A stretch of 34,546 nt of DNA from Candidatus Methanoxibalbensis ujae (GTDB lineage Archaea > Halobacteriota > Syntropharchaeia > Alkanophagales > Methanospirareceae), in NCBI GenBank assembly GCA_026134085.1, contig JAOQIN010000017.1, forward strand, positions 1 through 34,546, in the 5' to 3' direction. This document shows positions 23,800-29,321 of this stretch, one piece after another. Under the pieces are notes generated by a model. It had not been told where the DNA came from. It did no database searches and was given only the letters and a program-made list of their open reading frames with translations. The position numbers and the translations under genes are program-made. Every line of letters begins with the position of its first letter. Position 1 is the stretch's first letter.

Positions 23800-23801
23800 G
23801 A

Positions 23802-23885
23802 GCAGTGGCAGCGATGGCAGCAATGACAATGACCGCAATGACAGCAATGACAGCAATGACAGCAATAGCAGCAATGACAATGACA
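23802..23885. repeat. 9-bp degenerate tandem repeat (GCAATGACA)n filling the thrS-SAMP intergenic space
   Basis: gcagtggca gcgatggca gcaatgaca ... gcaatgaca gcaatgaca gcaatgaca gcaatagca gcaatgaca. Confidence 0.9.
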
Positions 23886-24115: not shown

Positions 24116-24263
24116 ATTCTCCTCTGTTCTTTCTCGTTCTTTTCTTTTGTCTCTCCTCCCTCAATCTCACGACCTTACCTCAACCTCAACACTTAACCTC
24201 ACCTGCGATGTGCGATGCTATGTGCGGTCTTATGAGACTTATGAGATAAGGAGGAATTTTATA

Positions 24264-27200
24264 ATGATGGGGTCAGTGACATCCGTGTCAGCATCTGAGG
24301 ATAAGGAAATCTCATCGGCGATAGATGCGGCGACACCTTTGATGAAGCAGTATTTTGAGATAAAGAAGAGATGCGGCGACGCTATACTTTTGTTTCAGGT
24401 TGGTGATTTTTTTGAGACATTTGGGGATGATGCGAGGCGCATTTCAAAGGATCTCGGCATTGTGCTGACAAAGAGGGAGAGGGGCGGGGATGAGCCCATA
24501 CCGATGGCGGGATTTCCATGTCATTCGGCGATGAATTATGTGAAGAGGCTCATAAATCGCGGATACAAGGTTGCGATATGCGAGCAGGTTGAGAAGCCAT
24601 CTCCCAATAAGAAGCTTGTGAGGAGGGAGATAACGAGGATTATAACACCCGGCACTGTTGTTGAGGACGAGCTCCTTGATGTTGGGAACAACTTCTTCAT
24701 GGGCGTTCTGAGCACGCGTGATGTGCCTTCATGCGCTCATGAATGCGCTCATGATAATATCAGATTTGCAGCTGCGTTTGTTGACATATCAACGGGAGAT
24801 ATGTTCATCACAGAGACTGACGGCGACCAGCTGCTATCAGAGATCACGAAATTTTCACCCGTTGAATGCATAATTCCCAGGGGATTTGACGAAGAACTCA
24901 AAAGGGAGATAGGCGTTCACTGCTTCATAAACGAGGTTGATGTGGAGTTTTTTGAGGACGCGATATCCGCATTGAACAGGCTTGGCATTGATCTGCATTC
25001 TCCTTTGAGCAGGCGAGTGGTTAGCGCGACACTCCGATATATAAGCCGCGTATGCATGCGTGACATCTCTCACATTCGTGTCAGAAGGTATGAAATGCAT
25101 GATTTCATGATGATTGATGCCACGACACTGAAAAATCTTGAGATATTTGAGCCTCTGAGAGGGAAAGGAGGAACACTTCTGAGCGTAATAGACAGGACAA
25201 CAACTCCTATGGGCAGGAGAATGCTGAGAGAATGGTTGAGAAAGCCTCTGAAGGATGCTTCAATCATAAAAGAGAGGCTTGACGCTGTTGAAGAGCTTTT
25301 CAGAAAGCCGTTCGTGAGGAATGAACTCGCTGAAACACTGCAAAATCTGTATGACATGGAACGCCTTGTAAGCAGGGTGAAGCTCGGACTGGCAAATGCG
25401 AGAGACCTAGTGGCACTGCGAAGAAGCCTTGAAGCAGCATCAGAAATGAAAAAAAATGTGGAATTCAGCAGCAAAATGCTGAAATCAATTTTAAAACGCA
25501 TTGATGATGTCAGTGAGGTGCAGGAAATCATAAAAAAGGCAATCGCAGATGATCCTCCAGCAACTCTGAAGGAGGGATACATCATAAAAGATGGATTTAA
25601 CGCTGAATTAGATGCGATAAGAAATGCAAAGCGTGATGATGAGCGATGGATAAGAGAATTTGAGATCAGAGAGAGAGAAAGAACCGGGATAAACTCGCTC
25701 AAAGTCGGATACAACGACATAATCGGATATTACATAGAGGTTACGAAGCCAAACTTGAAGCTCGTGCCACCGGAATATGTGAGGAGGCAGACACTGAAAA
25801 ATGTTGAGAGATACTCAACGCCGGATCTTGACAGGCGATCAGAGCGTGTTCAGAGCGCGGATGAGCGCATAAAAGCGATGGAATACGAGATATTCTGCAG
25901 TGTGAGGGATGATGTCTCAAAATACACGAGAAGAATACAGGATACAGCAAAGGCTATTGCCGAGCTTGATGTCCTGATATCTTTTGCAGATGTATCAGCA
26001 ACGAACAACTATGTGAAGCCTGAGGTTCACAGCGGAAAGGATCTCACGATAAAATGCGGAAGGCATCCTGTCGTTGAACTATCAACGGATTTCGTGCCAA
26101 ATGATGTCACTCTTGATGAAAGAAGCAGATTCATGATAATAACAGGTCCCAATGCGTCCGGAAAATCAACTTATGTTCGTATGGTGGCGCTGATTGCGAT
26201 ATTATCGCAGATAGGATGTTTCGTGCCCGCTGAAGAGGCTAAAATCTGCATTTTTGATAAAATATTGACGAGAATAGGTTCGGTTGATGAGATTTCATCG
26301 GGTATAAGCTCATTTATGGTTGAAATAATGGAAATGCTGAAAATAATAAGGCATGCAAGCGAGAGGGACCTTGTCCTTCTGGATGAAGTCGGCAAGGGAA
26401 CAAGCACATATGATGGGATAAGCATTGCGTGGGCGTTCTCAAAATATCTCTGCGAAGTTGGCTGCAAAGTGCTTTTCGCAACTCACTTCAGGGAGCTCAC
26501 AGAACTTGAGAATGAGGAGGGATGTGTTGTCAATTATCATTTTGACGCTGTTGAATCCTCGCAGACACTGCACTTCGTCAGGAAGCTCAAGCGAGGAGTT
26601 TCCGAGAGGAGCTACGGGATAAAGGTTGCTGAAATGCTGAAGATGCCGAGGCGCATCATAGAAGAAGCTGAGAGAAAGCTTGAAATGTTGGAGAGGACTC
26701 ATTCCACTCATTCTGAAAGAATTAAATCGCAATATGAGCGGAAGAAGTGCGATGTGCGTGAGAGAGGCGGTGTGAGAGGTGTCGCAGCAGGCAGTTGTGT
26801 TGCAGCAGGCAGTGATGTTGCAGCAGGTGGTGTCGGGGAAGCTGACAATGTCGGGGAAGCTGACAAGATAAATGCGAAAATAGATGAGGTCATTGCGATC
26901 CTTCGTGATATACATGAGAAGGAGAGGAGAACCACAATATTGAGAGCGATAAAAGAGCTTCAGCTTTTCAAAAGCGAGCGCTTTTCCGCGTTCAAGCTTC
27001 GCAGAAAGTGTGGTGAGGGCATAGATCATTTCATCGCGAAAAATTTGCTTTTCAATTCGCTTGAGAATGTCCGCGCTTATTCTGTGGAGGCAAAGCGGAG
27101 TGCTATAAGCAAGTTTGGATACAGACCGGATGTGATGGCGATCACGGATGAGGGACTCATCATAATAGAAGTGGAGAGGAACATAAAAGCATTCATCAGA

Positions 27201-27431
27201 AAGCTGCGCTCACTTGAGAGCGCGCTCGCTGCGTTGAGGCGCGATGCTCATGAGACAGGAGACCCCATACTGAAGCTCATGCGTGCGGGAGATTTCAAGA
27301 TAATCGTGGGAACCCTGAAAATAAACGAGGGGGACCTGCGGAAACTTCGTGAATCGTGCTCACGATTGAATTTGAATGTTGAGGTATATCACGTGCATAC
27401 CGAAAACGGGGAAATAGCGCGTTTTATTTGA
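24264..27431 (+). CDS. mutS: DNA mismatch repair protein MutS (MutS1-type) with C-terminal PD-(D/E)XK-like nuclease domain
   Basis: TPLMKQYFEIK, FQVGDFFETFGDDA (F-x-E), MAGFP, VAICEQ, RIITPGT, TPMGRR, YDMERL, GRHPVVE, TGPNASGKSTY, SSFMVE, LLDEVGKGTS, FATHF, SYGIKVA, followed by about 245 further residues. Start placed at ATG 24264 behind SD AGGAGG. Confidence 0.95.
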   Translation: MMGSVTSVSASEDKEISSAIDAATPLMKQYFEIKKRCGDAILLFQVGDFFETFGDDARRISKDLGIVLTKRERGGDEPIPMAGFPCHSAMNYVKRLINRGYKVAICEQVEKPSPNKKLVRREITRIITPGTVVEDELLDVGNNFFMGVLSTRDVPSCAHECAHDNIRFAAAFVDISTGDMFITETDGDQLLSEITKFSPVECIIPRGFDEELKREIGVHCFINEVDVEFFEDAISALNRLGIDLHSPLSRRVVSATLRYISRVCMRDISHIRVRRYEMHDFMMIDATTLKNLEIFEPLRGKGGTLLSVIDRTTTPMGRRMLREWLRKPLKDASIIKERLDAVEELFRKPFVRNELAETLQNLYDMERLVSRVKLGLANARDLVALRRSLEAASEMKKNVEFSSKMLKSILKRIDDVSEVQEIIKKAIADDPPATLKEGYIIKDGFNAELDAIRNAKRDDERWIREFEIRERERTGINSLKVGYNDIIGYYIEVTKPNLKLVPPEYVRRQTLKNVERYSTPDLDRRSERVQSADERIKAMEYEIFCSVRDDVSKYTRRIQDTAKAIAELDVLISFADVSATNNYVKPEVHSGKDLTIKCGRHPVVELSTDFVPNDVTLDERSRFMIITGPNASGKSTYVRMVALIAILSQIGCFVPAEEAKICIFDKILTRIGSVDEISSGISSFMVEIMEMLKIIRHASERDLVLLDEVGKGTSTYDGISIAWAFSKYLCEVGCKVLFATHFRELTELENEEGCVVNYHFDAVESSQTLHFVRKLKRGVSERSYGIKVAEMLKMPRRIIEEAERKLEMLERTHSTHSERIKSQYERKKCDVRERGGVRGVAAGSCVAAGSDVAAGGVGEADNVGEADKINAKIDEVIAILRDIHEKERRTTILRAIKELQLFKSERFSAFKLRRKCGEGIDHFIAKNLLFNSLENVRAYSVEAKRSAISKFGYRPDVMAITDEGLIIIEVERNIKAFIRKLRSLESALAALRRDAHETGDPILKLMRAGDFKIIVGTLKINEGDLRKLRESCSRLNLNVEVYHVHTENGEIARFI
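26780..26866. repeat. Two sets of 18-bp in-frame tandem repeats in the MutS-nuclease linker
   Basis: (GTTGCAGCAGGCAGTNNT)-like x3 (VAAGSx) and perfect TGTCGGGGAAGCTGACAA x2 (26831-26866). Confidence 0.9.
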
Positions 27432-27500: not shown

Positions 27501-27695
27501 TATACTGGATACTGACAGGATACTGACCTGAGCATCAACTATTGAACCATAACTTCACCAACTCATCTCATGGCCAACCATTGCGCTCTCCTTTGCGTTT
27601 GCTGCCTCAGCGTTTTCATTGTGATGTGGAGCTGCCTGTGGACACTGCCTGTGGACATAGGCTCCCCGGCTGAGATGGCTTTCGGTGCAGGTGAA

Positions 27696-28199
27696 TCAGG
27701 AACCTCTCACCGTCATCTCCTTCATTTGTTTTCTTTTCTTCACATAGGGCACGAGACCCCCCATCTCAATGAGATTCTCCATGAATTCTGGCAGCGGTCT
27801 GAACACATATTCTTCTTTTTTCGTGATGTTTTTTATGATTCCCTTTCTGTAATCAATCTCTATCTCATCACCATCGCTCACTTTATCGCTTATATCCGCC
27901 TCAATCAATCGCAATCCTGTGTTTATCGCGTTTCTGAAGAATATCCTTGCAAATGAAGATGCGATAACGCAGCTTATCCCTGCTCCCTTCAGTGCGCGCG
28001 GTGCGTGCTCCCTTGAAGATCCGCAGCCGAAGTTGCGACCGGCGACAATGACATCTCCCCTCCTCACCGCTGACGGGAATTCAGGACGCACCTTCGCAAA
28101 TGCATGCTTCGCAAGCTCCTCGGGATCTGCTGTTGTCAGGAACTCGGCTGGAATTATCTGATCAGTGTCCACATCATCTCCAAATTTCCACACACGCAT
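27696..28199 (-). CDS. leuD: 3-isopropylmalate dehydratase/homoaconitase small subunit
   Basis: [52 protein letters not shown]. Substrate specificity is not determined. Confidence 0.88.
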
Positions 28200-28266
28200 A
28201 TTCTTTCTTTATTTTTATCGTTTGATAAGTTTGATAAGATAATATGAAGCCATTGACTGTGCTCAT

Positions 28267-28650
28267 TCATGTGAGGCTCAATGCGCTCGTTGGGCATGCT
28301 TTCACGCAGACATCGCAGCGAACGCATTTCTCTTCATCCACCTGAATTCTCCATTCTCTGTCAAATCTGAAAACGCCCTTGGGACACACAGATATACATG
28401 CACCACAATGAACACAGCGCTCATCTTTCAATGTCAGCGTCCTTTTTATCCTGCGGACAACCACGCCCCGCTTCCTGAACTGCTCTATCACATGCTCGGC
28501 CTTCTCATCAGGCACATCTATGATGAGCTCCCCGCGAACCGCATCCACATTCGCCCTGTCTATGTTTATTTTTGCACCTGTCTCAAGAATGACCTCTGCG
28601 GTGTATGGCATGCCATGCACATGCGATGGGAAACACACGAGAAGCTTCAT
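28267..28650 (-). CDS. NIL-domain 2x[4Fe-4S] ferredoxin (similar to the iron-sulfur subunit of L-aspartate semialdehyde sulfurtransferase)
   Basis: N-terminal NIL-like domain (ILETGAKINIDRA..GELIIDV); CVHCGACISVCP and CVRCDVCVKACP. Confidence 0.85.
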   Translation of the reverse strand: MKLLVCFPSHVHGMPYTAEVILETGAKINIDRANVDAVRGELIIDVPDEKAEHVIEQFRKRGVVVRRIKRTLTLKDERCVHCGACISVCPKGVFRFDREWRIQVDEEKCVRCDVCVKACPTSALSLT

Positions 28651-28651
28651 A

Positions 28652-29209
28652 TCACATCTCCCTCCGCCGTTCATTCTTTTTCTCCTTTTTCACTGGAAAA
28701 CCATGCTTGCGAAGGAATTCCACGAGACCCTCTTTCAGTATATCTCGCAGGAAATCGGGCAGTTCTGTTTTGAATTCATATTCCTCATTCTTACTGATGT
28801 TCATGATTTTCGGAGTGACGAAATCAATGTTCAGACGATCTCCCTCGTCTATCCTGTCAACCACACTTTTGGACACTTCTACAAGAGGCAGCCCTATGTT
28901 TATAGAGTTTCTGAAGAATATCCTCGCGAAAGAAGGTGCAATTATGCATGCAATTCCACATTCCTTCAACACGGCAGGCGCCTGCTCCCTTGAAGATCCG
29001 CAGCCGAAGTTCTCATATGCCACGATTATAGGGTTCTCACAGCGACGGGCAGCCTCATAAAAACCCTCACACACTGATTCAAATGTGTGGACTGCGAGCT
29101 TCTTCATATCCAGTTCGTCGTATTTATATTTGCCCGAGATGATCTCATCTGTGTTTGTGTTCGCCGGAAATTTCTTCAGCACTGTTCCTTCCACCCTCTC
29201 AACACCCAT
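28652..29209 (-). CDS. Second LeuD/HacB-family aconitase small subunit
   Basis: [43 protein letters not shown]. Start placed at 29209 (SD AGGTGA); the ORF track extends to 29311. Confidence 0.85.
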   Translation of the reverse strand: MGVERVEGTVLKKFPANTNTDEIISGKYKYDELDMKKLAVHTFESVCEGFYEAARRCENPIIVAYENFGCGSSREQAPAVLKECGIACIIAPSFARIFFRNSINIGLPLVEVSKSVVDRIDEGDRLNIDFVTPKIMNISKNEEYEFKTELPDFLRDILKEGLVEFLRKHGFPVKKEKKNERRREM

Positions 29210-29321
29210 TTTATCATTATCACCTTCGCAGCTCCCTTCGCAGCTCAACACCTTTCTTTTTATCTCCTCTGCCGCTGCCGCAAACGCTCGCATGCCGTTA
29301 TGAGAGGTCATAGGAGGCGGA

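Follow-up and report, generated by a model that had tools for sequence, protein, structure and literature searches.

Can a MutS that carries its own nuclease do without MutL? The question is raised by a 34,546-nucleotide stretch of DNA from the archaeon Candidatus Methanoxibalbensis ujae (contig JAOQIN010000017.1; hereafter "the window" is this whole stretch), in which one open frame of 1055 amino acids, free of internal stops, runs from a MutS into a C-terminal domain resembling those of restriction enzymes. An earlier note, made from the letters of the window, had suggested that this is a MutL-independent enzyme that both finds and cuts mismatches. Our analyses lead us to favor the following reading, to which we give a probability of roughly 0.6: the protein appears to belong to an archaeal MutS1 clade with a partner of PD-(D/E)XK fold, encoded separately or fused as it is here, and would act as a MutL-independent, MutS-directed endonuclease. 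This reading rests on the architecture and predicted fold of the protein, on a set of conserved residues that are putatively catalytic, on the coupling of the genes and their common ancestry, on purifying selection and on the lack of any MutL match in genomes with the split form.

A MutS1 with an appended nuclease-fold module

The start chosen for the frame, the ATG at 24264, is preceded by AAGGAGG at 24248-24254, an alternative in-frame TTG at 24147 would extend the product to 1094 amino acids, and the identical 1055-residue sequence is recorded in both NCBI and Logan. Pfam places MutS domains I-V at residues 24-810, the NCBIfam mutS1 profile TIGR01070 scores 885 bits (cut-off 642), the mutS2 profile remains below threshold (211 bits versus a cut-off of 400) and Pfam found no Smr domain in the frame; judged by these profiles, the MutS part is MutS1, not MutS2. 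The motifs GDFFETF, Walker A and B, SYGIKVA, GIDHFIAK, PD and E-V-E were all located where the earlier note had put them (Table 1). Its description of the MutS as complete, on the other hand, stands only in part: domains I-V, the Phe-X-Glu of mismatch binding, the ATPase and the helix-turn-helix (HTH) are present, but the C-terminal helix-loop-helix is not, as a pattern search detected it in 0/5 fused rows versus 19/19 split-type and 30/31 MutL-type rows. The linker found in its place varies in length among strains and has a different sequence in the sister genus. The connector also lacks the segment aligned to residues 224-230 of E. coli MutS; as a sign of lost MutL binding this deletion is weak, as the MutL-linked MutS proteins of Cytobacillus and haloarchaea lack the segment too.

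The appended part, which had been put at about 140 residues, is longer than that: the module has ~190 residues and opens near 26850 with a hairpin of helices, also found in the free homologues, that may have a role in docking or dimerisation. The module had no Pfam match at E 0.05. AlphaFold2 modeled it as a two-helix hairpin followed by an alpha/beta core (pLDDT 88.5, 13 sequences) and, because the hairpin dominated our first VIA structure search, the core was also folded alone (pLDDT 91.5, 33 sequences). The best Foldseek matches of the core were to the catalytic domain of NucS/EndoMS (2vld, E 6.6e-4; 5gke, E 9.8e-4), the three rows at E <= 0.001 all being NucS/EndoMS chains followed by SfsA, AF2093, Nt.BspD6I and XisH, and VIA-align matched it to AF2093 (Z 8.2, rmsd 4.0, 112 aligned) and NucS 2vld_B (Z 7.5, rmsd 2.9, 101 aligned). 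Restriction-fold proteins, as we class them, account for all 16 Foldseek rows listed at E <= 0.07 and for most of the leading VIA rows. AlphaFold2, Foldseek and VIA are consistent in this respect and, as the earlier note had supposed, the predicted core has a PD-(D/E)XK-like fold (helix, three strands, helix, strand).

The conservation proposed for the H, PD, ExE and K of the module was borne out. Invariant in 26 homologues (20-53% identity to the query) are E918, H922, E942, R954, P955, D956, E969, E971, K980, L880 and P1001, and eight of these 11 columns are charged or His and lie at or near the putative active site. The ratio of nonsynonymous to synonymous substitution (dN/dS) of the nuclease was 0.05-0.10 in four of five Archaeoglobi pairs, the fifth pair being saturated, and 0.17 between two fused tails, for which dS is near saturation. 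The nuclease module is under purifying selection.

Sequence searches placed the module less closely. A PDB search with the tail profile was unproductive, its best match (E 0.033) being a designed protein, and no sequence match of the module to MutH was seen in the Pfam or PDB searches. NucS_N and NucS_C matched neither P0001 and P0002 (E 0.05) nor 8 alignment members (E 5). Among 8 module members there were weak Pfam matches to REase_AHJR-like (PF18743; 6/8, best E 5.4e-5), CoiA_nuc (PF06054; 1/8) and Hjc (PF01870; 1/8), the window's own domain scoring 12.9 bits against AHJR-like, for which the cut-off is 26.1. The ESM Atlas, which provided leads only, gave top scores of 0.90 to phage clusters, with the nearest named cluster being AHJR-like at 36% of members (0.87).

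The fusion, its split form and their ancestry

The low-complexity linker, and an NCBI record (P0005, 163 aa) in which the tail is called alone, could be taken to mean that the frame is a chance read-through or an assembly join of unrelated neighbours. Yet the fusion recurs in a second genus, which answers the earlier note's call to look for it in related genomes: among 68 genomes of the order, full-length matches were found only in the window's genome and in G044, which belongs to another genus (67% identity), and the same two were the only ones of 79 genomes of the class with strong matches to the tail profile. The tail also occurs at six metagenome loci: at five it is visibly in frame with MutS or linker sequence lying before it, and the sixth is truncated at its start. 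Out of 23 cluster members examined, all 19 that bear the HTH have the tail motifs in the same chain (spacers of 121-134 aa), and the other four comprise two with the tail only and two other fragments; a second cluster has 20 members, 15 of them listed. These counts, the purifying selection on the nuclease and the presence of the partner at the same place in 20 Archaeoglobi genomes (see below) largely refute a chance join, which we regard as exceedingly improbable. The sources of the sister-genus protein name Ca. Methanospirare jalkutatii or Methanophagales, for which we assume the label ANME-1 (anaerobic methanotrophic archaea, group 1), and its database label is simply "MutS"; the fusion family is probably of ANME-1. 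The fusion is real and not an assembly artefact, occurring in many assemblies of two ANME-1 genera. A long MutS frame in G202 was rejected as a further fusion, being an upstream extension next to mutL, and we took the weak tail-profile matches in G028 and G002, and loci L059-L062 (28-30% over 50-68 residues), for distant PD-(D/E)XK look-alikes and left them out.

Downstream of the sister-genus fusion there are variable genes (L064:821-3477, L068:497-3153, L045:14220-16351) that encode an N6/N4 methylase or an R.PabI-like protein together with an N6 methylase, and at two loci they overlap the fusion stop. Such neighbours, a restriction-type fold and a patchy spread with likely transfer between thermophile lineages are what might be expected of a defence system in which a MutS-guided nuclease destroys invading or modified DNA. 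We consider this role quite improbable: in the window, housekeeping genes (thrS, leuD-like, hisF, gatD, ahcY) surround the fusion, PADLOC 2.0 gave no match better than E 0.013 among 7 proteins, and the module had no match in plasmids or viral contigs.

When 1.84 billion representatives were searched with the module, 8 proteins were returned, five of which are free proteins of 175-176 aa (the free partner is ~165-178 aa long), and a genome scan found near relatives of the module directly behind mutS in Archaeoglobaceae contigs. In 96 Archaeoglobi genomes we counted the nuclease in 20, MutS domain I in 23, MutL in one and NucS_C (E <= 0.001) in 23. The nuclease start overlaps the mutS stop in 20/20 genomes, by 25 nt (12 loci), 22 nt (7) or 19 nt (1), and the only one of the 21 nuclease copies that does not overlap, a second copy in G084, has 76 bases upstream of it on its contig. 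All 20 overlaps share the same frame offset, with the partner starting within the codons of the last MutS helix (e.g., L051:8001-8025). The overlap geometry suggests that the two genes may be translationally coupled. Nineteen of the 23 genomes with MutS domain I have the nuclease, in three the contig stops short of the 3' end of mutS, and the last is G136, which is the only Archaeoglobi genome with MutL and whose MutS is unrelated and of the MutL type. The mutS-mutL pair of G136 (C6, L124), in which MutS is 79% identical to a MutS from another family of the phylum, represents a transfer or a misbinned contig.

MutL had no match in any of the 20 nuclease-bearing Archaeoglobi, and NucS_C had none in 17 of them. 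Seventeen of the 20, from five genera, are 90-99% complete by matching coordinates, and in two nuclease-bearing genomes the contigs that carry the pair measure 1.56 and 2.20 Mb. When the profile was run against 401 sampled genomes of the phylum, it found those 17 Archaeoglobi and the window's genome and no others. The pair of G120 is on record as F. placidus MutS (ADC65888.1) and "hypothetical protein Ferp_1745" (ADC65889.1), and the protein of G104 as a hypothetical protein of A. profundus. The free nuclease also has two divergent subfamilies, one with P0012 and P0023-P0025 and the other with P0010, P0021 and P0022. We did not count the correlation of MutS and nuclease distances (r 0.87-0.90) as co-evolution, as it is expected for adjacent genes. 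Gene order and homology indicate that the nuclease domain is a dedicated MutS partner, a separate gene in Archaeoglobi and fused in two ANME-1 genera, and we regard the fusion as independent evidence that the two proteins work together.

The fused and split MutS proteins share the motifs TRIGxVD(D/E)I, LLDEVGK and SYGIK, where those of the MutL type have TRVGAxDDL, DEIGRG and SYGIQ. A MutS phylogeny, which the earlier note had put forward as a check, places fused and split forms in one clade (SH-aLRT 98 with 37 rows; local support 96 with 54 rows; SH-aLRT 97 among 26 rows with bacterial outgroups), and a grouping of the fusion with the ANME-1 MutL-type MutS was rejected (p-AU, approximately unbiased test, 0.0026). 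These were quick IQ-TREE or FastTree trees from which truncated, intein-bearing and near-duplicate rows had been dropped. One canonical ANME-1 MutS of 1385 aa (L046:6169-10326; G007:C1) has a long intein-like insert within Walker A. Since the fused genes are sister to the Archaeoglobi set and not nested within it, transfer could have gone in either direction. Spread between thermophile lineages by transfer is likely. All 15 nuclease-linked MutS rows have a Phe (F350; F320 in F. placidus) that is rare elsewhere and that aligns with a Phe pair of Cytobacillus, which resembles F319/F320 of Bacillus MutS, given as a MutL-contact loop in the available text of PMC4521584. It is tempting to speculate that the nuclease partner docks at this residue.

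Repair without MutL and the rival roles

The earlier note had seen no mutL in the window and suggested a check of the whole genome for mutL and nucS; we found no MutL in the 89%-complete genome (PF01119, PF08676 and tblastn with two MutL queries) and no NucS_N in the profile search, with a single sub-threshold match to NucS_C. The canonical MutL-type mutS of this genome consists of pieces in several frames with stops and deletions (C67:~27507-28980, reverse strand) and is a pseudogene. In G044 mutL lies just upstream of gtrA-gyrB; the same place in the window's genome, within a 137-kb contig, holds another gene, and the gtrA-gyrB region is rearranged relative to G044. Because of this other gene and the lack of MutL matches, it is likely that mutL was lost from the window's genome. 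A MutL match was obtained in 58/68 genomes of the order. The frameshift in the canonical mutS of G044 (L043:6981-9621, C7) is a one-base assembly error, in that the contigs of 4/4 runs from four studies lack the extra base, and the idea that both fused lineages have a broken canonical mutS was rejected for G044.

Several points weigh against a MutL-independent endonuclease. Scores for the fold match are no more than modest (Z 7.5-8.2, with rmsd 7 in Foldseek rows) and bear on fold, not activity. The clamp-binding (PIP/beta) pattern is absent from the fusion, although this pattern is uninformative (6/39 MutL-type and 0/13 split-type rows). Since MutL is absent from 95/96 Archaeoglobi, its absence is a background of the class, 72/96 Archaeoglobi have neither mutS nor the nuclease, and these counts include kin and are not independent. 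In G079 there is a strong NucS match beside the pair (L196; G364 = G079, C34:7379-8005), the strongest among genomes with the pair, which appears to be split by a TAG stop. Within the order, 9/67 other genomes also have no MutL match, and the window's genome is incomplete. Finally, G044 carries the fusion together with a canonical mutS and a mutL that has kept its endonuclease motif. With an intact MutS-MutL beside it in the sister genus, the fusion does not replace the old pair in every case, and a separate job for it would fit equally well; the coexistence may mean that the fusion was taken up and the old pair then lost from one branch, or that the fusion has a role of its own, for instance in anti-recombination. 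On computational grounds, the MutL independence that the earlier note had proposed is supported: every computational check that it listed gave a favourable outcome, and the overlapping partner gene in MutL-less Archaeoglobi, which it did not know of, strengthens the case. The canonical pair kept intact by the sister genus qualifies it.

MutS2-Smr is thought to cut recombination intermediates. If, similarly, the MutS described here sensed mismatches in heteroduplexes or recombination intermediates and its nuclease cut them, anti-recombination or processing of branched DNA would agree with this coexistence, with the patchy spread (20/96 Archaeoglobi), with the finding of no strand-choice signal and with the weak matches to AHJR-like and Hjc. 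We think it unlikely that this is the better description of a protein that is a MutS1 and not a MutS2, with five domains and a Phe-X-Glu kept in 5/5 fused and 21/21 split rows, and that occurs in a genome whose canonical mutS has decayed. The roles in anti-recombination and error repair are, however, compatible with each other.

A further point against cutting is the motif itself, which is PD...ExE and not (D/E)xK, with the invariant Lys, K980, 11 residues on in the next helix. Such a site might belong to a module without catalytic activity, an adaptor or DNA-binding domain through which some other nuclease or helicase is recruited to MutS, and inactive PD-(D/E)XK domains exist (excerpts of PMC1189080), as does the MutS1 tail of Cyanophora that was judged likely inactive (excerpts of PMC12292046). 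Nevertheless, the excess of charged residues and His among the invariant columns makes an adaptor rather improbable, and active sites of this superfamily in which the Lys has migrated or given way to an acid are known (PMC1189080).

How would a MutL-independent, MutS-directed endonuclease operate? From what is known of MutS, a MutS dimer would bind a mismatch or small loop via Phe49/Glu51 and then convert to an ATP-bound clamp; mismatch binding and an ATP-driven clamp are presented as known MutS behaviour in PMC4521584. The clamp would bring the tethered or docked nuclease to the DNA and license cutting, and D956 and E969 (with H922/E918, E971 and K980) may then nick the DNA close to the mismatch or cut both of its strands there; removal of the flap and resynthesis, or else recombination, could finish the repair. 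Two nuclease domains per dimer could make a double cut like that of EndoMS, which cuts both strands in vitro according to excerpts of PMC7690668. ANME-1 probably acquired the system beside its own MutS-MutL, with one genus keeping both and the window's genus letting the canonical pair decay. There is a fair chance that MutS1 with its PD-(D/E)XK-fold partner is a further mismatch-repair pathway. The stronger proposition is tentative, at somewhat less than even odds: that it is the third in prokaryotes after MutS-MutL and NucS/EndoMS, a MutS1-nuclease of two components or one chain that detects and cuts replication errors without MutL, is the main means of mutation avoidance in cultured hyperthermophiles, F. 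placidus and A. profundus among them, and has taken the place of MutS-MutL in the ANME-1 lineage of the window.

Comparison with known systems and features of the window

With the canonical MutS1-MutL(-MutH) system, in which MutH is a PD-(D/E)XK enzyme, the proteins described here have in common a full MutS1 with Phe-X-Glu, ATPase and HTH. They differ in that, of the 22 GTDB genomes seen to carry the module, 21 gave no MutL match (the window's genome and the 20 Archaeoglobi) and only G044 has MutL, in that the nuclease is coupled straight to MutS, and in the missing helix-loop-helix of the fused form. NucS/EndoMS, whose catalytic domain is the best structural match of the core, cuts at mismatches without MutL (as described in excerpts of PMC7690668), but the module lacks both the N-terminal recognition domain of NucS and a NucS Pfam match. 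Presumably, MutS supplies mismatch recognition in place of NucS_N.

Fusions of MutS and nuclease domains are known as MutS2-Smr, MutS7-HNH and plant MSH1-GIY-YIG. Like these and the plant DPD1-MutS1, the window protein has both parts in one chain, but it differs in its nuclease fold, its MutS1 scaffold, its archaeal origin and in having a split form with overlapping genes too. For plants, excerpts of PMC12292046 suggest that MutL loss accompanied the gain of MutS-nuclease fusions, and they describe the MutS1 of Cyanophora paradoxa, from a lineage without a cyanobacterial-like MutL, as having a Mrr_cat-like, probably inactive C-terminal extension. The latter, a MutS1 with a C-terminal restriction-fold-like domain, is one printed precedent for an architecture of which the earlier note knew no description, although none was found for this fusion itself; compared by description only, it is a single eukaryotic sequence, where the module here forms a family that spans two archaeal classes and keeps its putative catalytic residues invariant. 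The likeness to AHJR-like, CoiA_nuc and Hjc is limited to weak profile matches, and the module differs from them in its ExE motif, N-terminal hairpin and strict link to mutS. We found no description of the pair or fusion in the literature searched; subscription papers on MutS classification might mention the pair. Couplings of MutS to nucleases are known, and what is new is that a clade of MutS1 has a PD-(D/E)XK-fold partner to itself, either separate or fused to it, in most cases with no MutL beside it.

Replication accuracy in very thermophilic archaea without MutS/MutL pairs has been called an "enduring mystery" (PMC8358315, in the text available), and a survey of NucS, which allowed that other pathways may exist, listed F. 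placidus as having MutS but no NucS, with MutL undefined (PMC5290159, dataset 1). The partner is a candidate for the missing cutter in these heat-loving archaea, as it would do the cutting normally left to MutL. The two recorded proteins of F. placidus, a cultured species, together with a natural single-chain version, make our reading directly testable, and a heat-adapted single-chain mismatch-directed nuclease could serve in mutation detection or error correction.

Table 1. Features of the MutS1-nuclease frame, in window coordinates.
Feature	Position	Strand	Basis
Whole ORF: MutS1, linker, hairpin and nuclease-fold domain	24264..27431	+	Translation, upstream AAGGAGG
MutS domain I, mismatch binding	24333..24671	+	PF01624 E 7.5e-43, aa 24-136
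GDFFETF with Phe49-x-Glu51	24402-24422	+	Motif search
MutS connector (II), core (III), clamp (IV)	24753..25988	+	PF05188, PF05192, PF05190
MutS ABC ATPase and HTH	26133..26693	+	PF00488 E 7.5e-73
Walker A, GPNASGKST	26145-26171	+	Motif search
Walker B, LLDEVGK, clade-type	26376-26399	+	Motif search
HTH motif, SYGIKVA	26610-26630	+	Motif search
Gly/Ala/Val low-complexity linker, in place of the C-terminal helix-loop-helix of other MutS1	26694..26849	+	Sequence comparison
Two-helix hairpin, which the free partner has at its N-terminus too	26850..26981	+	AlphaFold2 helices 2-26 and 29-45 of P0002; alignments
Predicted PD-(D/E)XK-fold core	26994..27428	+	AlphaFold2, Foldseek, VIA, residue invariance
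Core residues E918, H922, E942	27015, 27027, 27087	+	Alignment numbering
GIDHFIAK, tail motif	27018-27041	+	Motif search
Core R954-P955-D956	27123-27131 (PD 27126-27131)	+	Alignment numbering
Core E969-x-E971 (E-V-E)	27168-27176	+	Alignment numbering
Core residues K980, P1001	27201, 27264	+	Alignment numbering

The window is archaeal by its CDP-archaeol synthase, GatD and archaeal ThrRS editing domain (Pfam), and the genome has mcrA. A sigma-70 promoter and terminator scan gave chance-level results only, the sigma-70 model being ill-suited to archaea. Directly after the thrS stop, at 23800-23885, there are short 9-nt repeats of the GCAATGACA type. Downstream of the fusion, two genes for aconitase C-terminal (LeuD-like) small subunits lie near each other at 27696-28199 and 28652-29311 (reverse strand).

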